A stretch of DNA of 64,000 nt, taken from contig CAVQBA010000004.1 of NCBI GenBank assembly GCA_963710605.1, positions 1,056,001 through 1,120,000 of the forward strand. The letters are read 5' to 3'. This document shows positions 27,169-46,771 of this stretch, in pieces; within the stretch, counting starts at the first letter, position 1; each line of letters opens with the position of its first letter. Below the pieces are notes generated by a model. That model was not told the DNA's origin. It saw only the letters and a list, made by a program, of their open reading frames with translations, and searched no databases. This DNA comes from an uncultured cyanobacterium (lineage in GTDB: Bacteria > Cyanobacteriota > Cyanobacteriia > Cyanobacteriales > Cyanobacteriaceae). The position numbers and the translations under genes were made by a program.

Positions 27169-28971
27169 TTAATAAGGTTTGGCTGGTAAATTTAAACCAC
27201 GATCGCGTAAATACTCACCTGTTTCACGAGAAGGATTGTAGTTATAACCAAAACCACTATTAGCATCACTATCATTAAGTATTTGAGGAGTAAGAATAAT
27301 GACAACTTCTGAGCGATCACGAGAAGTAGATGTGGAACGAAACAAACTCCCAATTAAAGGTAAATCACCTAAGATAGGAACTTTAGAAACTTGTGTTCTT
27401 TCATTGTCACTAATAATTCCAGAGAGAATTAAAGTTTGTCCATCTCGTAAACGAATTAAACCAGAAGTAACATTTCGCTCAACTAATGGTTGAATAAAGT
27501 TAATCGCTCCACCACTATCAAATTGTTGTCTATCACCAGGAAAAGTAACAGAAGGATTAACATTCAAACTAACAAAACCATTATCGTCAATTTTACTAAC
27601 GGCTAAATTAAGAATTAAACCAGCAGGTTCAATTTCAGGAGTAATAGTTCTCACACCACTCTCTACGTCAACTTCAGTTGTAATGCTAGTAACAACATTT
27701 TCAACTAATTCAACAGAGCCAACTTGACCTTCTTGAACAACTAAGGTAGGGTCAGTAAGTATTTTGGCATTTCCCGAACTAACATTAGCCCTGATTTGAG
27801 CGAGGAAAGCATTGGGTACATTAAAGTTTAAATTACCCGTAGTGTTAACATCACGTTGAAGAGCACCTGGCTGTGCGGCATCTAATACATCAACACCAGA
27901 AGGTGATACTTGACCTGAATCAGGGATAATCGAATTTATATTTCCATTATTAGTACCGAAGTTAATAACTCCAATCCCACCATCTTGAACAACACCAGTA
28001 TCGTCGATTCCAAAAGAAAAACTACTTCCAAAACTTTCATTTTGATCTAAGTTGATATCAACAACTTTAACATTCACCGCTACTTGACGACGACGAACAT
28101 CTAATTGGGTGAGAAAAGACGTAGCAGTTTGAATTAAGTGAGCTTCGCCAACTAATGTGATCGTATCATTAAGAGGATCAGCATGAACGGTTAAACCTTC
28201 TAATACCAAGTATTCGTTATCTTTAGGCGCACTATCTAAAGGCTTAACAGTGAATGTTCTTCTTCCTGTTTCTTCATCATCTTCGACTTCAACAATATTA
28301 CCTTTTGCCCCTTGGCTATTAAGGAATGTTGCCGCACCGATCGCACTATACTGATTTAAACGAATACTACGGGTAATTGTGCTTTTGACTGTAGGTGGTA
28401 ATTTATTACCAACAAAAACTGTGTTACCTTGACGATTAGCTTTTAATCCAGAAATCAATAAAACGCTATCAAAGACATCTTGTATTGGTTCGTTTTCTAA
28501 ATCTAAAGAAACTGTCGCATTAGTTTGACCTTCAACATTTGATTCAGTGAAAATAATATTTAAACCTGCCGCTCTAGTTAGTAAAGCTAAAACTTCAGTC
28601 GCAGGTGCATCCCGTAATACTAAACGAGGTACTAAGGCTGTTGTGCCTAAATTAATTGTCGGTACATTGTTACCAACATTAGAAACCGACATATCGCCTA
28701 CAGGTGGTGCAACCGCACGAGGGATAAAAGGTGGTGGTGTTTGTTGTCCACTAATGGGTTTACCATCTATTTTGAGGGTTGGATTAGGGATTAAAACATC
28801 TTGTTCTTGTTGAGCAAACATTTGAGCGATCGTCAACGGGGTTTCTTTTAGTTTAATTTTTGATTCAATCGTACTAGAGCCAGCGATTGCGATCGATTGC
28901 CAAGAAAGCAAAGCGACACTTGTAGCACTAAAAAATTTGATTTGATTTTGATTAAGAGAAAATTTAATCAT
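27169..28971 (-). CDS. pilQ: Type IV pilus secretin
   Basis: AKILTDP, DGQTLILSG and KVPILGDLPLIGSLFR secretin motifs; last gene of pilMNOQ; start at MIKFS preferred. Confidence 0.93.
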   Translation of the reverse strand: MIKFSLNQNQIKFFSATSVALLSWQSIAIAGSSTIESKIKLKETPLTIAQMFAQQEQDVLIPNPTLKIDGKPISGQQTPPPFIPRAVAPPVGDMSVSNVGNNVPTINLGTTALVPRLVLRDAPATEVLALLTRAAGLNIIFTESNVEGQTNATVSLDLENEPIQDVFDSVLLISGLKANRQGNTVFVGNKLPPTVKSTITRSIRLNQYSAIGAATFLNSQGAKGNIVEVEDDEETGRRTFTVKPLDSAPKDNEYLVLEGLTVHADPLNDTITLVGEAHLIQTATSFLTQLDVRRRQVAVNVKVVDINLDQNESFGSSFSFGIDDTGVVQDGGIGVINFGTNNGNINSIIPDSGQVSPSGVDVLDAAQPGALQRDVNTTGNLNFNVPNAFLAQIRANVSSGNAKILTDPTLVVQEGQVGSVELVENVVTSITTEVDVESGVRTITPEIEPAGLILNLAVSKIDDNGFVSLNVNPSVTFPGDRQQFDSGGAINFIQPLVERNVTSGLIRLRDGQTLILSGIISDNERTQVSKVPILGDLPLIGSLFRSTSTSRDRSEVVIILTPQILNDSDANSGFGYNYNPSRETGEYLRDRGLNLPAKPY

Positions 28972-29127
28972 TTGTTTAACTCCTTCACACAAATAATAAA
29001 AAACAAAGTTTGTCAACGAAAATAAATAATTACGACTTCGGTCAGATATTCAATTAACTATATAATCAAACAAGTGAAATCTTGATAAAAATAAAATTTG
29101 AGTCTAAGTCAAATTAAATAATTACGA

Positions 29128-29874
29128 TTATGGTGTTTCTCCCTCAACAGGTGGCTGTTCAGCTACAGGTGGTTTGACATCAGCAAAAACTGCTTGGAAA
29201 GTAACCGTTGTTTTCAAAGTTGGTTGCCCTACTGCTGATAGCTGATTATTTTGCAATAAGTATTTAGGTGGTTCAACTGTATCTGCATTCAAGTTTTTAA
29301 CTATCAGTAAAGGTTGTAAACGTTCTAAATCTTGCAAAAATGATTGTAATTCAGAAAAAGTTCCTTCCAAATCAAGATTGTATGTTTTTACTTGAACATT
29401 ATTAGTTGCTAAACTACCTAAAGATTCATCCGTTAAAGGTTCTTTTTCGCCTGTAGGTACATAACTATTGATAGTTACGTTAGTTAGTTCAGCAAAATTA
29501 CTCACATCTAAGAGTAATGTTTCTAACTCATTATCGCTAGAAAATAATTGAATTACCTCTTGTTTTAGATTTTGTGTTTGCTCTAACTCTGCACGTTTTT
29601 GAGCAATAATTACTTCTAATTGGTTAGAATTTAATTGGTTAAGTTGTCCTTCTTTTTCTTGTCTTTGAATTTTTAGCTCGGATAACTCTTTCCAAGCTGG
29701 AAGAACTTGATTAGAGATTAAATAAGCGGCAATTAATGTCCCAAGTACACCTAGTATAATACCAATAATTTTCGGTGTAAAAGTGACACCAAAGGCTTCG
29801 GGATAATCGGGTTCGCCGTCAAAACCGCCGCCTTGAGGATCAAATTCATCAGAAGTAGTAAAAGATGTGGTCAT
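29128..29874 (-). CDS. pilO: Type IV pilus assembly protein PilO
   Basis: N-terminal TM, coiled coil, G.F..LQSF..DLERLQPLL motif; operon position. Confidence 0.88.
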   Translation of the reverse strand: MTTSFTTSDEFDPQGGGFDGEPDYPEAFGVTFTPKIIGIILGVLGTLIAAYLISNQVLPAWKELSELKIQRQEKEGQLNQLNSNQLEVIIAQKRAELEQTQNLKQEVIQLFSSDNELETLLLDVSNFAELTNVTINSYVPTGEKEPLTDESLGSLATNNVQVKTYNLDLEGTFSELQSFLQDLERLQPLLIVKNLNADTVEPPKYLLQNNQLSAVGQPTLKTTVTFQAVFADVKPPVAEQPPVEGETP

Positions 29875-30695
29875 GGTTGAGTCTCTCCTTCAGATATTGG
29901 TTCGGTAACGTATATATCAGGAACTTGTAAGTCTAAAGCCCCTTTTCTTCTTAAAGTAGTAATTCGAGAAACTAAACCTGTTGCCCCTTGACGGTTAAGC
30001 TGGTTTAGATACTGAATCGAGGATTCTTCGGTGATTGCTGTGGTTATAGTATAAGATACTACCTTTGGTAATTCAACCTGTACTCCTGTTGGTTGACCAT
30101 TTTGTTGGTCGTTGTTTGTATTTAATTGTGAAAGATTAAATATAATTTGATTGGGATTGTCAACTAGACTAGTCGTATCTAATTTGGTAAATTCGGCATC
30201 TAATAAAGGAGAATTTTTTAAAGTTAATAATAAATCATTAACACGATCGTAAGAATCAGCATACCCATTAATTGATAATGTTTTGCTATCAACTTGAGAA
30301 ATGGCACTAATTTGCATATCTGAAGGTGTAACACTAGCAATTTCTGAGAGCATAGCTGACCAAGGTTTAAGTTGCTCAAAAACACTAACTAAAATCGCAA
30401 CTTCTCGGTTAGCATTGTCAATTTCAGCTTGAATTTGTTGTACTTCTGCTGTTTTACCTTGTAACCGTTGAATTTCACTATCTAGTTGGGCGATTTGTTT
30501 ATTTTGACTAGATTTTTGGGCATTTAAAAGTAATAATGCACCACCAGCAATTCCAATTAAAGCTACTGCTATCCCACCACCGATAAAAAGAGGTAGTTTT
30601 TCTTCGTTAGATACCGATTTTTTTCTATATGCGGTAGGGCTACTTAATGCATCTAGTTTACGGTCTTTTAAAAAATTAATATCAATATCATACAT
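29871..30695 (-). CDS. pilN: Type IV pilus assembly protein PilN
   Basis: N-terminal INFLKDR motif, TM, coiled coil, KPWSA.L; operon position. Confidence 0.9.
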   Translation of the reverse strand: MYDIDINFLKDRKLDALSSPTAYRKKSVSNEEKLPLFIGGGIAVALIGIAGGALLLLNAQKSSQNKQIAQLDSEIQRLQGKTAEVQQIQAEIDNANREVAILVSVFEQLKPWSAMLSEIASVTPSDMQISAISQVDSKTLSINGYADSYDRVNDLLLTLKNSPLLDAEFTKLDTTSLVDNPNQIIFNLSQLNTNNDQQNGQPTGVQVELPKVVSYTITTAITEESSIQYLNQLNRQGATGLVSRITTLRRKGALDLQVPDIYVTEPISEGETQP

Positions 30696-30697
30696 AA

Positions 30698-31813
30698 TTA
30701 ACTTATTCTCATCCCTAAGCCTAAAACTGTACCTAATCCTGCTCTTTGCATAGCAGATAAATCATCTTTCATAGTCAAAGAAAGTGCCGAGATAGGATCA
30801 ATTCTCATAGTTGGTAAACTCACTTTTTTCGTGAAATATTCATCAATTTGAGCAAGTCCAGCACCCGGTCCTGCCAAGAACATCTGCACTACTTCAACAT
30901 CACCACTTTGGTTAAGATAAAAATTAATCGATCGACGTAATTCATCAACTAATTCACCCAAAACTCTTAAAAGCGAATCCATCCCTGGATTAATAAAAGT
31001 CTGACTATTAGTAGTACTTGTACTGGTTTTTTCTGATGGATTACTAGGAATAGTGATTTCTTGTAATATTTCTGTATTTTTAGAAGTAGGTAAATTCATA
31101 GCTTGTGCTAGGGCAGTTTGCATCTGATAAGTACCAATTGGAATTGTCCGAGTAAATTGAGGTACACCTTCAACAATAATAGCAATTTCGGTCGTATCAA
31201 ATTCAATATCAACTAAAACTACCGCCTCAGAAGGTGAAAACTGTTTTAATTGTTCTTTAATAGTTCTAATTAAAGCAAAGCTATTAATTTCGAGAACATT
31301 AACCTTTAAACCTGCTTGTTGAAAAGTTTCTAAATACAAATCAGTCACTTCTCGACGAGTTGCCACTAATAATACTTGTACTTTTTCAATTCCATCTTCA
31401 TCTACAAAATAACCTAATTTTTGATAGTCGATATCGACTTCTTCTCTAGGATAAGGTAGATAAAGAGCGGCTTCATGATTTAAAACCATGTCTTTCAACT
31501 CGGTATCATTTAATTCGGCAGGAATTGGAATCAGTCGTAGCACCGATTCTTTCATCGGTACTGCGGTAGCTACTTGTTTGGGTTTAACTTTTGCTTCTTT
31601 AACTAATTGGTCAATTAGCTCAGCTAAAGCCGAAGAATCAATTATTTGACCTTCTTCAAATATTTCATCAGGCACATCTAATGCCAAATATTTTAATAAT
31701 TTGTACTGTTGTCCTTTCTTTGTCAGTTGAACTAAAGTAATTTTATCGGGGTTTATTTCTATTCCCACACCATTACTGTTACCACCCAACATATTATCTA
31801 AAAAACTGGCCAT
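30698..31813 (-). CDS. pilM: Type IV pilus assembly protein PilM
   Basis: GIEI, EAALYLPYPREE, LRRSINFY, LAGPG and VLGLGMR motifs. Confidence 0.95.
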   Translation of the reverse strand: MASFLDNMLGGNSNGVGIEINPDKITLVQLTKKGQQYKLLKYLALDVPDEIFEEGQIIDSSALAELIDQLVKEAKVKPKQVATAVPMKESVLRLIPIPAELNDTELKDMVLNHEAALYLPYPREEVDIDYQKLGYFVDEDGIEKVQVLLVATRREVTDLYLETFQQAGLKVNVLEINSFALIRTIKEQLKQFSPSEAVVLVDIEFDTTEIAIIVEGVPQFTRTIPIGTYQMQTALAQAMNLPTSKNTEILQEITIPSNPSEKTSTSTTNSQTFINPGMDSLLRVLGELVDELRRSINFYLNQSGDVEVVQMFLAGPGAGLAQIDEYFTKKVSLPTMRIDPISALSLTMKDDLSAMQRAGLGTVLGLGMRIS

Positions 31814-40790: not shown

Positions 40791-42650
40791 ATGAAACTGA
40801 ATACACCATTTAAGTTATTCTTGTTGTGCTTTTTTTTTGCATCCTTTAATGTGGTGATGGAAACGAATTATCCTCAAATAATGGCTCAATCACAGGAAAA
40901 AACGATCGCCTCAAATACTGAATTAAAAATCATTAATCAAGGCAAACAAGTTTTAGTGAATGGTAAAAAAGAAAATTTAGCTTGGATACAGTGGCAAGAA
41001 GGAAAAACTATCCGCACAGGTGTTAGTGACATGGGGGCAGAAGAAGTATTAGGGATTGAGTTACTTGGCTCGATTGTACCTAATGAGCAATCTGTACGTT
41101 GGTTTAATTATAGTAGTACTTTAGATACTAAATTTGCTAATCCTTATCGTTATCTAGATTTAACTAATCTAATTCAAAGCACATCATTACAAGCGGTTGT
41201 AGAAGGGCAATTTTTGAATTTAGATATGCCCTCAACTCAAGTAACCCAAGTTTATGAGCAAAAGTCTTTTGATGGTAATAAAAAAGTTGTTATTGAATTA
41301 GATCAACCTAGTTTCTTTAAAGTCAGTCAAGGAAGAAAACAAGGATATATTATTATTAAAGGTAAATATAACCAACCTGTTTTAGATAATTTATTAGATT
41401 TTAATGATCCTGTCAATAATACTCCTTTAGCTGAAGATGAAGAAGGAGATAAAATTATTGGTAATGAAGAAGAAAATATATCTTTATTTAAAGTTACTCC
41501 TAAAGGTGATGAGGAAACAGTAGTAACCGTTAATTTGCCTTTAGGTAGTAATATGAAAGTCACTTCAACTCATCCTAATTTACTGGTAGTTGATTTAAAA
41601 CTTGATGTTGTTACGCCTAGAGAAATTAGTTGGCATGATGATATTCTTCTTAGTCGTCAATATATTCGCCCACTCAATAATCCTGATATTTTTTTAGTTT
41701 CCGCACTTACTTTAAATACACCAAAAAACAATCTTATTCTCCGTCCAATTTTACCTAATTCAGATACAGTAATTGGTGCTTCGCCACTTAAAACGATGGG
41801 TAGTGATTTAAATATTATTGCTGGAATAAATGGTGGTTTTTTTAATCGTAATAATCGCTTACCTTTGGGTAGTATTAAAGATAATAATAATTGGTTATCA
41901 GGACCTATTTTAAATCGTGGAGTGATTGCTTGGGACGATCAAGGTAATTTTAAAATCGATCGTTTACAGTTAGAAGAAGTAGTTACTATCAATAATTCTC
42001 AACGTTTATTTAATAACTATCTCAATAGCGGTTATGTCCAAAAAGGTACAGCTCGTTATACTTCTGCTTGGGGTGAAAATTACACTAGTTTAAGCGATCG
42101 AGAAACAATTTTAGTCATTAAAAATAATCGAGTATTTGATAAAATTATTAGTAATAAAGCTGGAGATACTTCTGTTCAAATTGAACCAAATAGCTATTTA
42201 TTAGTATTAAGAAAAACGCCTGAATTAGCAGAGACAATTAATATTCAAGACCAAATTGAACTAAATAGTTTTACTTTTCCTCGTGAATTTGCCGATTATC
42301 CTTATATGATGGGTGCAGGACCATTACTGGTGTTAAACCGTCAAGTTGTGTTAGATGGAGAAGCCGAAAAATTTAGTAAGGCTTTTAATCAACAAAAAGC
42401 ATCTCGTAGTGCGATCGCAATTAATCAGCAAGGAGAAGTATTATTAGTAGCTGTTCATAATCGAGTTGGTGGTGCAGGACCTAGTTTAAATGAATTAGCT
42501 AATATACTCTTAGAAATGGGAGCAGTTTCGGCTTTAAATTTAGATGGCGGTAGTTCTACACAAATTTATTTAGGTGGGGAGATAATCGATCGTGCTTCGG
42601 CTACGGCGGCAAGGGTAAACAACGGGATAGGTGTGTTTTTGAAAGAATAA
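40791..42650 (+). CDS. Phosphodiester glycosidase (NAGPA-like) family exported protein
   Basis: INGGFFNR, GAGPLL, SRSAI and ALNLDGGSST motifs; signal peptide. Confidence 0.85.
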   Translation: MKLNTPFKLFLLCFFFASFNVVMETNYPQIMAQSQEKTIASNTELKIINQGKQVLVNGKKENLAWIQWQEGKTIRTGVSDMGAEEVLGIELLGSIVPNEQSVRWFNYSSTLDTKFANPYRYLDLTNLIQSTSLQAVVEGQFLNLDMPSTQVTQVYEQKSFDGNKKVVIELDQPSFFKVSQGRKQGYIIIKGKYNQPVLDNLLDFNDPVNNTPLAEDEEGDKIIGNEEENISLFKVTPKGDEETVVTVNLPLGSNMKVTSTHPNLLVVDLKLDVVTPREISWHDDILLSRQYIRPLNNPDIFLVSALTLNTPKNNLILRPILPNSDTVIGASPLKTMGSDLNIIAGINGGFFNRNNRLPLGSIKDNNNWLSGPILNRGVIAWDDQGNFKIDRLQLEEVVTINNSQRLFNNYLNSGYVQKGTARYTSAWGENYTSLSDRETILVIKNNRVFDKIISNKAGDTSVQIEPNSYLLVLRKTPELAETINIQDQIELNSFTFPREFADYPYMMGAGPLLVLNRQVVLDGEAEKFSKAFNQQKASRSAIAINQQGEVLLVAVHNRVGGAGPSLNELANILLEMGAVSALNLDGGSSTQIYLGGEIIDRASATAARVNNGIGVFLKE

Positions 42651-42689: not shown

Positions 42690-42887
42690 TTACAAACAGT
42701 CATAGCTGACCGAACATGACCAATAATCGGCAAGATTACCTGTTAATTTATGGGATTTTAAAGAAGGAGTAAAAGGGTAATTTTCTAATAAGTCTAATAC
42801 TGCTAGTATCCTATTCTTCAACTGAGAATTCTTTTTTATTACACGTTTAAAAGCCTTTTTGAACTTCTTTTCAACTATTAACTTCAT
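42690..42887 (-). pseudogene. Truncated YafQ/RelE-superfamily toxin
   Basis: FKKAFKR..., L..HKL.G.L...WSCSV.YDC, then a stop; the usual RI.F...IG.H..VY C-terminus is missing. Confidence 0.7.
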
Positions 42888-43108
42888 TCTTCTTCATCTG
42901 CTAATAAATAAGCTTTTACTTCTTCAGCAGTTTTTGGTTTTATCTTACCTTCTTGAAATTATTTAATAGTAGCTTGAGCGTTATTTGCTATTTCTAAACG
43001 TCGTTTTTCAATTCGTCTTTTTTTGATCAAATCAAATAAATAATCTTGATCTTCTAGAGGTAAATTCTCAATAGATTCTATAATTTCCTGAAAAGAGACG
43101 ATCGTCAT
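42884..43108 (-). pseudogene. Cognate antitoxin with internal TAA (codon 50, 42959-42961)
   Basis: Manual translation MTIVSFQEIIESIENLPLEDQDYLFDLIKKRRIEKRRLEIANNAQATIK*FQEGKIKPKTAEEVKAYLLADEEE*; the final TGA overlaps the toxin ATG (ATGA). Confidence 0.75.
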
Positions 43109-43223
43109 TTTATTGTATCTCCATTTTTAAATAATTTTAATAATTTATTTATTGTTTAGACAAGTTTCACCCAAATCGTTCTTTTAATTATAAATTTGAT
43201 TCTTTTATTTTTACTTAACTAAC

Positions 43224-43406
43224 TTATAATTCGGTTACTTTTTTAATTCCAAAGATAAAATTATCAGAAAACTCTTGATACAAATTCTTCAGATGTTCTT
43301 TTAAATCTTCTAAATCTTCTCCTTGAGTCCAATGTTCGGGATATTTATTCAAATAGCCTAAATATTTCCCATCTTCTTCTTGCCAAAAAGTATATTGTAT
43401 TTTCAT
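43224..43406 (-). CDS. HicB-like antitoxin, orphan (no hicA seen)
   Basis: Y..W.EEDG.YLGYL..YP..WTQGE.LEDL..HL pattern. Confidence 0.65.
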   Translation of the reverse strand: MKIQYTFWQEEDGKYLGYLNKYPEHWTQGEDLEDLKEHLKNLYQEFSDNFIFGIKKVTEL

Positions 43407-43463
43407 TATTAACCTAACATTTTCTAATTTAAATAAAATAGACATTACTACTTACCATAAATT

Positions 43464-43509
43464 TATTTTAACGTTTGGTTAGTTTAGTTAAAACTTGAAA
43501 ACGATCGTA
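43464..43509. repeat. Copy 1 of the htpG 3'-end repeat plus CGATCG
   Basis: 45/46 identical to 44123-44168; core 43468-43498 is 29/31 identical to htpG 44801-44831. Confidence 0.95.
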
Positions 43510-43556
43510 AGTTATAATCAAAGCATTGAATCAAATCAAGCTACATAGTTCTAAAA

Positions 43557-43760
43557 ATGGACACCGTAACATTAAAAGCCCTGATCAAAGAAAGTGTTAG
43601 AGAAGTTTTAAGAGAAGAAAAATTACTTTTAATACAATCTCTGATTCCTCCTGTTAAGCAAGAAGAGATGGAAGAGATAATTAATAAATTAGGAAGCCCT
43701 AAAGATTTTAATGAGGAAGACTTTGTTGATATGACTGATTGGTTAAACAATGAAGATTAG
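43557..43760 (+). CDS. Putative type II antitoxin
   Basis: 67-aa acidic protein (LKALIKESVREVLREE) overlapping the downstream RelE gene. Confidence 0.75.
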   Translation: MDTVTLKALIKESVREVLREEKLLLIQSLIPPVKQEEMEEIINKLGSPKDFNEEDFVDMTDWLNNED

Positions 43761-44034
43761 ATTTAGTAAACGTGCAGTTAAATTTTTAAACAAATTATCA
43801 ACAAAAGAACAAGCAAAAATTAAACAGAAACTAAGAGATTTAATTTCTGAAATTAACAACAATAACAATATACCTTTTCAAAAATTAAATATCAAAACTC
43901 TTAGTGGAGAATGGAAAGACTATTTGAGAATGAGAATCGGAAAAATGAGAATTATCTTTAAAGTCTATTCTGTTGAGAATGAAATATTTATATATGACAT
44001 AGACTATCGAGGAAATATTTATCAAAAGAATTAA
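43750..44034 (+). CDS. RelE/ParE family toxin
   Basis: I.FSKRAVKFL.KL, IK.L.G, RMRIGK.RIIF and ID.RG.IY motifs. Confidence 0.88.
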   Translation: MKIRFSKRAVKFLNKLSTKEQAKIKQKLRDLISEINNNNNIPFQKLNIKTLSGEWKDYLRMRIGKMRIIFKVYSVENEIFIYDIDYRGNIYQKN

Positions 44035-44122
44035 ATTTGTATATAGTAAAAGGGCAAGAAAATTCTTACCCTTACTATTATTTTTGAAGTCTATTAAACT
44101 GAAACACAACCTACTCTGAAAG

Positions 44123-44168
44123 TATTTTAACGTTTGGTTAGTTTAGTTAATACTTGAAAACGATCGTA
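44123..44168. repeat. Copy 2 of the htpG 3'-end repeat plus CGATCG
   Basis: Core 44127-44157 is 30/31 identical to htpG 44801-44831. Confidence 0.95.
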
Positions 44169-44232
44169 CCTATGATAGTAAGAAGAAAATAATTACGATT
44201 AGAATATACTTAATATCTCAACGAATACTATT

Positions 44233-44436
44233 ATGAATATATCAGTGGAAAACGATCGTCTCAAACAAACCATAAAACAGGCAATGCTAGAGCTATTTCA
44301 AGAAAACAAAGAAGAATTTTCTACATTACTAGCAGAAATTATAGAAGATATTGCCTTATCAAAAGCGATCGTACAGGGAGAAGAAACAGAATTAGTAGAT
44401 AAAGAAACTGTTTTTTCTATCTTGGATAAAGAATAA
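44233..44436 (+). CDS. Putative type II antitoxin
   Basis: 67-aa acidic protein (EIIEDIAL.KAI..G); stop overlaps the toxin start (TAATG). Confidence 0.78.
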   Translation: MNISVENDRLKQTIKQAMLELFQENKEEFSTLLAEIIEDIALSKAIVQGEETELVDKETVFSILDKE

Positions 44437-44702
44437 TGAAAGTAGAATTTAGAAAAAGTTTTGTCAAAGACTTAAAAAAGATCAAAAACTTCAAATTACA
44501 ACGAAAGATAAAATCAATCATTGAAGAAGTGGAAAATGCAGATAATCTTAAACAAATTAGCAATCTTAAATTTCTCAAAGGAGAAAATAATCATTATCGT
44601 ATTAGAATTGGAGACTACAGAATCGGCATAATTATAGAAAATGATGTTGTTAGATTTGTAAGGTTTTTACATCGCCAAAAAATTTATAAATTTTTTCCCT
44701 AA
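44436..44702 (+). CDS. RelE/ParE family toxin
   Basis: V.F.KSF.KDLKK, YRIRIGDYRIG and RFLHR..IY..FP motifs. Confidence 0.9.
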   Translation: MKVEFRKSFVKDLKKIKNFKLQRKIKSIIEEVENADNLKQISNLKFLKGENNHYRIRIGDYRIGIIIENDVVRFVRFLHRQKIYKFFP

Positions 44703-44770
44703 CTGTCTTTAAATATGATAAAGACGTAGCACATTGACTACGCCTTTAAAAAAATAGTTAAATTACGATC

Positions 44771-44797
44771 ACGCAGTGCCAGCCTTCGGCTGATCGT
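44771..44797. repeat. SDR5-like small hairpin inserted in a HIP1-like site
   Basis: ACG|CAGTGCCAGCCTTCGGCTG|ATCGT; removing the 19-nt insert restores ACGATCGT. Confidence 0.55.
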
Positions 44798-44800
44798 TAA

Positions 44801-46771
44801 TTAACGCTTGGTTAGTTTAGTTAATACTTGATTAGAGCGTTCGACAAAAGCATTCATCCCTTCAGCATCAAAAGCACGTTGTGCCATCAAAGCTAAATCA
44901 TAAACATATTGACACATCATGCCTACTGTTTCTTGAGTAGAAGATTCGCCACCATCTTGAATAATCGCACCCTTATTAAGATTGTAAATATTTTCAATCA
45001 AAGGATGAGCTGTATTAATCATCAAAATATGTTCTTCAGGAAACTGCATCTGTGTTTGTTGCATCATCGCTGTCATCTCTTGGAAACGACGCATCGCCTC
45101 AGGTAACAATACCATCGCCGGAGGTGTTTGTTCTTGCTTATCAGCTTTAAGTGACTGAGTTTTGATATTTACTTTAGGTTTACCGATCGCTTTTTCAAAG
45201 ATGTCTTTAATCTCTTCTGCACGGGTTTTATTCGTGGTAGGATCGACTATTTCACTACTTTTATCTTCTTGAACTAAGTTATCATCTAACTCAGAATCGA
45301 CTCTAGAGAATTTAACATCGGTGTATTCTCTTTCAAGGAAAGGAATGAAGTAGTTAGTATCAATGAATGAATCCATATACAATACTTCGATACCTTGATT
45401 TTTGTATAAATCAACATAAGTACTTTGAGTTTGAGCATTATTACAATAGAAAACTCTGTTTTCGTGGTTTTCTTTGTTACGCTCTAAATACTCATTTAAG
45501 GTAGTATAAGGCTCGGTAATGCTATCTTCGTTATTCACATCTTTCCAAGCGTCATCATCATCAGTTTGTACTTCAACTTTAGGTTTTTCTTCTGTCGCTG
45601 TTTCTGGTTGATAAGTACTACGGAAGATGATTAAGTCTTCTACTTGTTTTTTGAATTTGTCGTCTCTTAAAGAGCCATATTTGACAAATGTACCGACATC
45701 TTCCCAAGAATCGATATATTTCTTCTTATCTTCTTTATACAAAGATTTTAGACGATCGCCTATTTTTTTACTAATGAAATCAGAAATACGACGTACGGTA
45801 CGATGATTTGTTAAAGCACTACGAGAAACATTTAAAGGAATATCAGGGCTATCAATCACACCACGAAGAGGCATCAAAAACTCAGGAATAATCTCTTCAC
45901 AATGATCACTTACAAACACCTGATTACAGAAAAGTTTGATTTGCCCTTTATTAACATCAACATCAGGTTTTAGTTTAGGGAAATATAAAATTCCGTTAAG
46001 TAAAAAAGGATAATCTGTGTTTAAATGTACCCATAGTAAAGGATCTTCTTGAAATGGATAAAGATAACGATAAAACTCTAAATAATCTTCATCAGTCAAA
46101 TCACGAGGAGATTGTTTCCAAGGTGCTTTCTGACGATTAACTTGCTCTTCACCCATCTTGATAGCGACAGGAATAAAATCAGAATATTTTTTGACTAAGC
46201 CTTTAATTCTAGCTTCCTCGGCATATTCTGTTTCCTCATCCATTAAAGTAAGAGTAACAGTTGTGCCAGGAGTAGTACGAGTAGATTCGCTTAATTCAAA
46301 TTCAGGTGAGCCATCACAAGACCAATGAACAGCAGTTGCACCTTCACGATAAGATAAGGTATCAATCTCTACTTGAGTCGCTACCATAAAGGCAGAATAG
46401 AAACCTAAACCGAAGTGTCCGATTAAATCATTAGGTGATTTGCTATATTGAGTGATGAAGTCTTCGGCACTAGAAAAAGCAACTTGGTTGATATATTTTT
46501 TGATTTCGTCGGTTGTCATACCGATACCATTATCAGTAATGGCGAGAGTTTTTTTCTCTTTATCTACAGCGACGGTAATTTCAGGCTCAGGTAAATCTCC
46601 TGTTATTTCTCCGGCTAATGATGCCATCTTCGCTTTGGATATAGCATCGACGGAGTTAGAGATTAATTCTCTTAAAAAGATTTCGTGGTCGGTGTAGAGG
46701 GATTTTTTGATGATGGGAAATATATTTTCAGTATGAATACTAATATTTCCTTTCTCTAAAACGTTGCTCAT
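44801..46771 (-). CDS. htpG: Molecular chaperone HtpG (Hsp90)
   Basis: IFLRELISN, DNGIGM, IGHFGLGFYSAF and DIPLNVSR motifs. Confidence 0.98.
   Translation of the reverse strand: MSNVLEKGNISIHTENIFPIIKKSLYTDHEIFLRELISNSVDAISKAKMASLAGEITGDLPEPEITVAVDKEKKTLAITDNGIGMTTDEIKKYINQVAFSSAEDFITQYSKSPNDLIGHFGLGFYSAFMVATQVEIDTLSYREGATAVHWSCDGSPEFELSESTRTTPGTTVTLTLMDEETEYAEEARIKGLVKKYSDFIPVAIKMGEEQVNRQKAPWKQSPRDLTDEDYLEFYRYLYPFQEDPLLWVHLNTDYPFLLNGILYFPKLKPDVDVNKGQIKLFCNQVFVSDHCEEIIPEFLMPLRGVIDSPDIPLNVSRSALTNHRTVRRISDFISKKIGDRLKSLYKEDKKKYIDSWEDVGTFVKYGSLRDDKFKKQVEDLIIFRSTYQPETATEEKPKVEVQTDDDDAWKDVNNEDSITEPYTTLNEYLERNKENHENRVFYCNNAQTQSTYVDLYKNQGIEVLYMDSFIDTNYFIPFLEREYTDVKFSRVDSELDDNLVQEDKSSEIVDPTTNKTRAEEIKDIFEKAIGKPKVNIKTQSLKADKQEQTPPAMVLLPEAMRRFQEMTAMMQQTQMQFPEEHILMINTAHPLIENIYNLNKGAIIQDGGESSTQETVGMMCQYVYDLALMAQRAFDAEGMNAFVERSNQVLTKLTKR

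Follow-up and report, generated by a model that had tools for sequence, protein, structure and literature searches.

The region described here lies within a 64,000-nucleotide stretch of DNA, hereafter called the window, from an uncultured cyanobacterium of the family Cyanobacteriaceae. The window is on contig C4 of a 3.93-Mb host genome with 33% G+C, and this genome is 85% complete, so absences from it are not proof. Downstream of the chaperone gene htpG, the window carries a series of small cassettes interspersed with same-strand copies of the end of that gene (Table 1). Comparison with relatives reveals a real cassette array whose units are shuffled and whose distribution is restricted to one family. 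Genomes are denoted below by G numbers (G000 is the window's own), further contigs or loci by L numbers, and the genera of the family by g1 to g6.

A preliminary description of the window had noted that the last 31 nucleotides of htpG recur twice, at intervals of 674 and 659 nucleotides, and the positions, identities and spacings all hold. Compared with each other over 46 positions, among them an 11-nucleotide flank on the cassette side, the two copies agree at 45. They carry one or two mismatches to the end of their own htpG gene, versus at least four to any of 20 other htpG ends over the same 31 nucleotides. The possibility that the 31-mer is a dispersed repeat was rejected, because the entire genome contains exactly three matches with up to seven mismatches allowed, all of them at the htpG locus. 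When scored with a weight matrix built for the family, the three occurrences in the window receive 40.5-43.1 bits, and the next best site in the genome receives 13.9 bits.

Each interval between htpG-end occurrences contains one antitoxin gene and one ParE/RelE-family toxin gene, which face htpG. This had been predicted, and ParE_toxin matches over the cut-off for both toxins bear it out. In both cassettes (A and B), a small antitoxin gene overlaps the toxin gene downstream, an arrangement that appears to be that of a type II RelE/ParE module. The array has a G+C content of 26-29%, compared with 33-36% in the flanking genes. Beyond the second copy are cassettes H and Y. The gene in cassette H had been called HicB-like, an assignment that is weak, since its match to a UPF0150-like family falls below the cut-off. 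The final module had been described as a fourth module, of the YafQ type. Its YafQ-type assignment stands, but it is the third toxin module, and it has decayed. Its homology to a module on metagenome contig L070 (82%) stops at about position 42692, where L070 runs into another htpG-end copy.

Cassettes A and B are not the products of a plain tandem duplication, as the preliminary description had also argued. Their DNA aligns at 57% identity, versus a shuffle mean of 56% and a maximum of 59% (30 shuffles), and an end-to-end comparison of the two units yields no alignment above shuffles. The two toxins are 40% identical over 68 amino acids.

Table 1. Features of the htpG array and related loci. 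Positions are those of the window unless a contig of the host genome (C2, C4 or C6) is named.
Feature	Position	Strand	Basis or remark
htpG (Hsp90 chaperone, 656 aa), anchor gene	44801..46771	-	NCBIfam HtpG equivalog match
Repeated core: last 31 nt of htpG including stop codon (QVLTKLTKR*)	44801..44831	-	sequence comparison
htpG-end copy 1, 30/31 identical	44127..44157	-	
htpG-end copy 2, 29/31 identical	43468..43498	-	
11-nt flank containing ACGATCGT, same sequence beside both copies	44158..44168	.	beside copy 1
11-nt flank, second occurrence	43499..43509	.	beside copy 2; likely -10 box of cassette B next
Cassette A toxin, ParE/RelE family, 88 aa	44436..44702	+	Pfam ParE_toxin, E=1.7e-10
Cassette A antitoxin, RelB-like, 67 aa	44233..44436	+	PF25734 (RelB_like_antitoxin), E=3e-15
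Cassette B toxin, ParE/RelE family, 94 aa	43750..44034	+	Pfam ParE_toxin over cut-off
Cassette B antitoxin, 67 aa	43557..43760	+	RelB_like_antitoxin, E=0.012
Cassette H, 60-aa orphan gene, weak HicB/UPF0150 likeness	43224..43406	-	UPF0150-like, E=0.019, below cut-off
Cassette Y antitoxin, broken by in-frame stop	42884..43108	-	translation
Cassette Y YafQ-type toxin, truncated at 65 aa	42690..42887	-	family search and alignment
Terminator-like hairpin between htpG and cassette A	44719..44748	-	
HIP1-like ACGATCGT site split by 21-nt insert (44771-44791), GATC duplicated	44765..44797	.	sequence
Convergent NAGPA-domain gene, closes array	40791..42650	+	
Response regulator, MazEF-like pair, further gene, 90%-identical copy of last 255 nt	C2:201131-204667		MazEF-like by inspection of translations
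Mirror case: five-gene block between gene (C4:927522-928037) and copy of its start	C4:927522-931800		
Other mirror cases (5'-part copy upstream)	C4:832754-834135; C4:300682-302520; C4:404867-406719; C6:353752-356516		

We searched 40 relatives, found an htpG match in 38, and compared the DNA downstream of the gene in all 38. Same-strand copies of the htpG end are present in six of the 18 genomes of the family, including the window's own (five of the 17 relatives). Genomes G000, G009 and G017 have two copies each, and G004, G006 and G018 have one each, which is degenerate in G018. Carriers are distributed among the genera g1 (one of one genome), g4 (two of three) and g6 (three of seven), and none are found in g2 (four genomes), g3 (two) or g5 (one). 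A metagenome scan produced six matching stretches on five contigs, one of which equals G015 across the compared stretch. Contig L070 has three copies, L073 has one, L072 has one on a contig without htpG, and L074 has none, which brings the total to 14 copies across six genomes and three contigs. No copy is present in 21 genomes of other families, a few of which have less than 4 kb of downstream sequence, or in 40 further genomes of other families picked from the best htpG matches among 301 (36 with at least 1.5 kb downstream). A stop-anchored scan within 4 kb of 21 gene ends recovered 13 same-strand copies and no opposite-strand copies, numbers that include non-independent kin and are to be read as counts rather than as a statistical test.

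Units change rank from genome to genome. Unit B, which is second in the window, is first directly behind htpG in G004 and G009 (74% DNA identity), and its homologue in G009 has no intact toxin open reading frame (ORF) in the ORF list of that genome. Unit H is third in the window; in G005 it comes directly after htpG, and on L070 it is the last unit, following the third copy. Unit C, composed of an addiction-module antitoxin and a ParE toxin, is first in G015 and G017 and lies behind a copy in G004, G009, L070 and L073. On L073 the first position is taken by a DUF4926 gene, which in G004 and G009 comes after unit C. Unit Y, last and truncated in the window, is internal on L070 and is followed there by a copy. 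Other cargo includes DUF6887/DUF6888 genes, HicB genes and genes for proteins without a Pfam family, and cassette orientation is mixed across the family arrays. The core gene past the array varies in most family genomes. The evidence supports the view of the htpG end as a point at which attachment has recurred, and the counter-case of a cassette content that is invariant among relatives did not materialize, as both content and order vary. The broader claim that every cassette brings a gene-end copy does not hold throughout, since some cassettes are not bounded by a copy. Some cargo is not toxin-antitoxin. Twelve of the 18 family genomes lack a copy, several of which nonetheless have small cassettes behind htpG.

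The htpG core is missing from 19 loci in other genomes that have a homologue of unit A, and from six loci away from htpG that have one of unit B (best score 2.9 bits). Because these homologues occur without the htpG core, the toxin-antitoxin modules are general cargo rather than dedicated cassettes that bear an attachment site. At one locus in a genome of another family (G092, L104:1336-1367 and 1920-1951), a cassette A homologue lies between a gene end and a 32-nucleotide copy of positions -100 to -68 of that gene. Another locus (L099, in G026), which is unrelated to htpG, has a run of several toxin-antitoxin modules between direct repeats of 80-227 nucleotides.

The edges of the copies, which are approximate because they were taken from gapped local alignments, differ among arrays. 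Relative to the stop codon, the copies span -31 to 0 (twice), -30 to +1, -33 to +37, -38 to +18, -40 to +3, -49 to +38, -56 to +78, -57 to +36, -57 to +62 (with a separate piece from -137 to -110), -59 to +75, -68 to +3 and -274 to +44. Overall, they begin between -30 and -274 upstream of the stop and end between 0 and +78 past it. As with integrative elements, the 3' end of the target gene is directly repeated and the gene is restored. A fixed crossover and a constant block of identity are absent because the boundaries vary, although there is a floor near -30. One variable joint is expected of homology-facilitated illegitimate recombination, and variable joints are seen, but later deletion can also yield them. 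The DNA between the gene and a copy is not repeated beyond the copy.

Several copies carry scars. The G004 copy is a longer copy with an internal deletion from approximately -110 to -57. On L070, a duplicated promoter region of 78 nucleotides has an internal deletion and leads directly into the third copy; this copy and the second have a derived base in common. We read this arrangement as a duplication followed by a deletion. Identical junctions also recur on different contigs, one in G017 and L072 at the stop codon of a toxin gene and another in G009 and L073. As a separate matter, six of the 14 copies (G006, G009, G017, G018, L072 and L073) have TG or CA in place of the CG of the last arginine codon, a pattern that would be expected if the cytosine were methylated and deaminated once free of coding constraint. 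A hairpin of the type GGGTGGG...CCCACC follows the htpG stop codon in most of g4, g5, g6, G011 and L070 and accompanies several copies, and it is absent in the window.

The htpG locus is not the only place in the host genome where a gene fragment is displaced. We made our own ORF calls (2508 ORFs of at least 150 amino acids) and listed low-copy gene fragments that have a further copy in non-coding DNA no more than 8 kb away. Such copies are direct for 38 genes and inverted for five. Of 22 genes with a downstream copy, 17 contributed it from their 3' half; of 16 with an upstream copy, 13 contributed it from their 5' half (Fisher p=0.0007; rank test p=0.0004). The clearest parallel to htpG is the response-regulator gene at C2:201131-201829, and the mirror cases in Table 1 mostly enclose small accessory genes that on inspection are restriction-modification-like, HicAB-like or HigAB-like. 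This polarity shows that htpG is not special in kind, and it is no proof of transformation. Of a set of 23 ParE and PIN places, only three fall inside the listed fragment-copy intervals, and two of these are the htpG array itself. At C2:237944-240322 there are tandem related genes of 153 amino acids (DUF29-like by inspection) whose conserved 3' ends are about 540 nucleotides apart.

We consider it probable that the array grows additively without an integrase, by homology-anchored insertion at the 3' end of htpG, such that the old end is displaced and its copies are later reused and eroded. In the arrays themselves, the gene is intact, the cargo is unique, and a displaced gene end lies on the same strand; edges vary, units are shuffled, copies are eroded and distal cassettes have decayed. 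To begin, DNA from a relative carrying the 3' part of htpG, its stop codon and a cassette would recombine by homology within htpG, and its far end would be joined illegitimately to the chromosome somewhere before the resident stop, at a point that varies. Alternatively, the piece might circularize and integrate by one crossover, which would give the same product. The outcome would be the observed structure: an intact gene, the new cassette beside it and, farther downstream, the displaced old end as a copy on the same strand. That copy could then act as a short second homology arm, so that the unit might be moved, duplicated or deleted again. Such an arm would work whatever gene lies beyond it, and would shuffle cassettes and propagate particular junctions. 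The duplication and deletion scars in L070 and G004 fit this reuse of units. Over time, copies would erode by deletion towards the last 30 base pairs or so, and distal cassettes would decay. The floor of about 30 base pairs may correspond to the reported lower limit for RecA-dependent recombination; the accessible text of one source describes both this threshold and the one-sided anchoring process (PMC2884548). Toxin-antitoxin modules would be common cargo because they are small, have their own promoter and resist loss. The host genome encodes the DNA-uptake proteins ComEC, DprA, PilM and a PilQ-like secretin. A type IV pilus gene run from pilM to a pilQ-like gene, relevant to DNA uptake, is situated at window positions 27169-31813.

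Various points count against homology-anchored insertion. No insertion event, donor or same-species empty allele was observed, and competence genes alone do not show competence. Homology-facilitated illegitimate recombination reportedly produces mostly insertion-deletions rather than duplications in the primary papers. No copy shorter than 23-30 nucleotides was found in the stop-anchored scan (score of at least 11), which a recombinase site would also explain. Both window copies have the same -31 junction and 11-nucleotide flank although A and B are unrelated there, which calls for an additional step. The best explanation is that a single junction arose once and was reused, and that one cassette was exchanged at ACGATCGT, a palindrome abundant in the genome. 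Tracking of the host's own gene is weak or absent for several older copies (the G017 copy at d=636, G018, the second copy of L070, and L073). In the host genome, a scan anchored on stop codons gave four genes with non-coding copies versus 5, 3, 3 and 1 in internal controls, which is no clear excess, and for this reason the test of side and orientation was used. The fragment-copy list behind that test derives from crude ORF calling, and remnants of paralogues as well as insertion sequence (IS)-related cases are among its entries. The polarity it reveals is also expected from any gene-sparing duplication. In a cross-species mosaic test of the htpG 3' end, nearest neighbours were mostly stable.

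Some of these features could arise within the genome, with no foreign DNA taken up. Unequal recombination between chromosome copies might duplicate the gene end together with whatever lies downstream, and deletions would trim the product. Modules would then arrive separately in a tolerant spot, and the gene-end copies would be debris. The scars in L070 and G004 suit this account, as do the copies that mostly match the gene end of their own host and the 12 copy-free family genomes, several of which are copy-free despite small cassettes behind htpG. The same can be said of the 19 other cassette A loci without the core, one of which (L104) has self-repeats that on inspection involve an adjacent long ORF. 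We nonetheless view this origin as unlikely, given that the intervening DNA does not reappear after a copy, that units C, B and H start right behind the htpG end in several genera at different ranks, and that the same junctions are found on different contigs. It is doubtful, though conceivable, that the last 30 base pairs or so of htpG are an active, reusable attachment unit that makes small toxin-antitoxin cassettes portable between species of the family, whatever lies downstream. It could do so as a minimal arm for RecA, held near the threshold length, or by being the site of a trans-acting recombinase. In either case, the end of a housekeeping gene would serve as an integron-like platform without an integrase gene. 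The version with a site-specific recombinase supplied in trans, for which small non-autonomous circles would integrate at the htpG end and longer copies would reflect imprecise excision, seems quite unlikely to us. About ten independent junctions (by our grouping) have a floor near -30 and cluster from -30 to -38, and the window copies share junction and flank, with identity ending exactly at the stop. The restriction to one family (none of 21 and none of 40 genomes of other families) also points this way, as do eight tyrosine-recombinase matches in the genome and a TTAAC-N14-GTTAA inverted repeat in the window core. However, the boundaries vary on both sides, and the inverted repeat is imperfect in five copy-bearing genomes (G004, G006, G009, G017 and G018). 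Recombinase-sized cargo is not evident in the first 5 kb behind htpG at 18 family loci when ORF lists are inspected. Viral contigs gave no match to one degenerate exact pattern for the core, a weak negative since this strict pattern finds only five stretches in the genome collection. In addition, the same architecture is present at unrelated genes and at 5' ends.

Derivation from an integron, as a cluster of attC sites lacking integron-integrases (CALIN) whose attI/attC sites overlap the htpG end, is highly improbable. Large integrons typically contain toxin-antitoxin cassettes that have their own promoters and lie in inverse orientation, and the only same-genus genome, G001, has a truncated IntI-like ORF of 208 amino acids with an IS-like ORF nearby (L080:1489-2115; 222 bits, cut-off 265). 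Against this, the integron integrase model TIGR02249 finds nothing over its 265-bit cut-off in 21 genomes (best score in the host genome 38.5 bits), the repeat consists of protein-coding sequence, and the cassettes do not share one orientation. Six folds over three repeat regions give z values from -0.78 to +0.65 relative to shuffles, with no hairpin, and the repeats have no Rfam match, so that an attC site or structured RNA is unsupported. These folds agree with the earlier report that no integrase, transposase or attC-like hairpin is near the array, as does the absence of any integrase or transposase family match (E<=1e-15) in 40 window ORFs of at least 100 amino acids, several of which have no family. 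Seven other ORFs of this size were searched separately, were read by eye, or overlap another ORF. No integrase is linked to the array: none of the eight tyrosine-recombinase matches in the genome is near it, and the closest on the contig is about 460 kb distant. Of the two kinds of mechanism proposed at the outset, anchor-assisted recombination fits. An integron-like process or a recombinase acting in trans fits poorly given the variable boundaries, the lack of a hairpin and of IntI, the homologues elsewhere without the site, and the same layout at unrelated genes and 5' ends.

The array resembles several known systems, which are compared here as far as the accessible text of the papers cited describes them. 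Additive flexible genomic islands of Alteromonas are found at tRNA or tmRNA genes, which are the target in six of eight islands and are not obligatory (PMC4898812). In these islands, cassettes vary in number and order at one fixed site, and beyond an added cassette part of the target gene is found again as a direct repeat (PMC4898812). The htpG arrays likewise occupy the same site in relatives, vary in the number and kind of cassettes, and mark additions with a partial repeat of the target gene. They differ in having htpG, a protein-coding gene, as the anchor in place of the usual tRNA or tmRNA gene, units of about 0.1-2 kb, a tenfold range of repeat length, and no linked integrase. Orphan cdiA-CT/cdiI and rhs-CT/rhsI arrays also form when modules enter the 3' region of a gene and displace the old end, and these tandem arrays keep homology to the upstream gene (PMC4927057). 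Unlike those arrays, which often include integrase or transposase genes (PMC4927057), the htpG array has no such genes, displaces an invariant housekeeping C-terminus, and never fuses its cargo to the gene. Homology-facilitated illegitimate recombination in competent bacteria similarly combines one homologous anchor with one illegitimate joint and needs no dedicated enzyme (PMC2884548), but it is a laboratory-defined single event, whereas iterated arrays that duplicate a gene end would be an extension proposed here. Like the htpG array, integrons and CALINs hold small cassettes in shuffled order, are rich in toxin-antitoxin modules and have older units that decay towards the distal end, but the htpG array lacks an attC hairpin, IntI and a fixed crossover.

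The array is likely the product of a known recombination route that has left an unusually legible record. It illustrates how small addiction and defence genes can be gathered and reordered at a core protein-coding gene without a mobile-element enzyme, and each displaced gene end is a scar that can be scored. The mirrored pattern of 3' copies downstream and 5' copies upstream would provide a sequence-only readout, in wild populations, of one-sided homology-anchored acquisition, for which laboratory transformation is so far the main source of knowledge. Given its small size, the locus could be rebuilt in a model cyanobacterium. We found no description of htpG-anchored or gene-end toxin-antitoxin arrays in cyanobacteria among the titles and abstract beginnings searched, a coverage that leaves out most subscription journals.

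Other candidate explanations for details of the array were tried and dropped. Retention of the copies as promoters gained no support: one sigma-70-like match overlaps copy 1, but 12 such sites were found versus 11.5 expected. The likely -10 box of cassette B, TATAAT, is at 43513-43518, just after the second 11-nucleotide flank. An origin of the G004 copy from a foreign allele ended in a four-way tie. One low-depth sequencing run contains two short pieces of the array at full identity, with most of the array uncovered and no joints listed.

A preference of junctions for HIP1 (highly iterated palindrome 1) or GATC likewise gained no support (5 of 30 genome-wide edges have GATC within 12 nucleotides versus 7.9% expected, p=0.08). 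CGATCG is present at -38 to -33 in 12 of 21 htpG ends, and the G009/L073 junction falls there, which is suggestive only. The accessible text of PMC13756078 refers to illegitimate deletion flanked by HIP1 and to stimulation of transformation by HIP1. The host genome has 896 copies of ACGATCGT, compared with 708 of the canonical HIP1 sequence GCGATCGC, and CGATCG occurs 8449 times. The 21-nucleotide insert in the HIP1-like site near the htpG end has four near copies in the host genome, three of them beside CGATC, and the stretch at 44765-44797 is also matched in G041, G082, G093, G173 and G203. With its GATC duplication, the insert resembles the SDR5 element of heterocystous cyanobacteria as far as the available description of that element goes.

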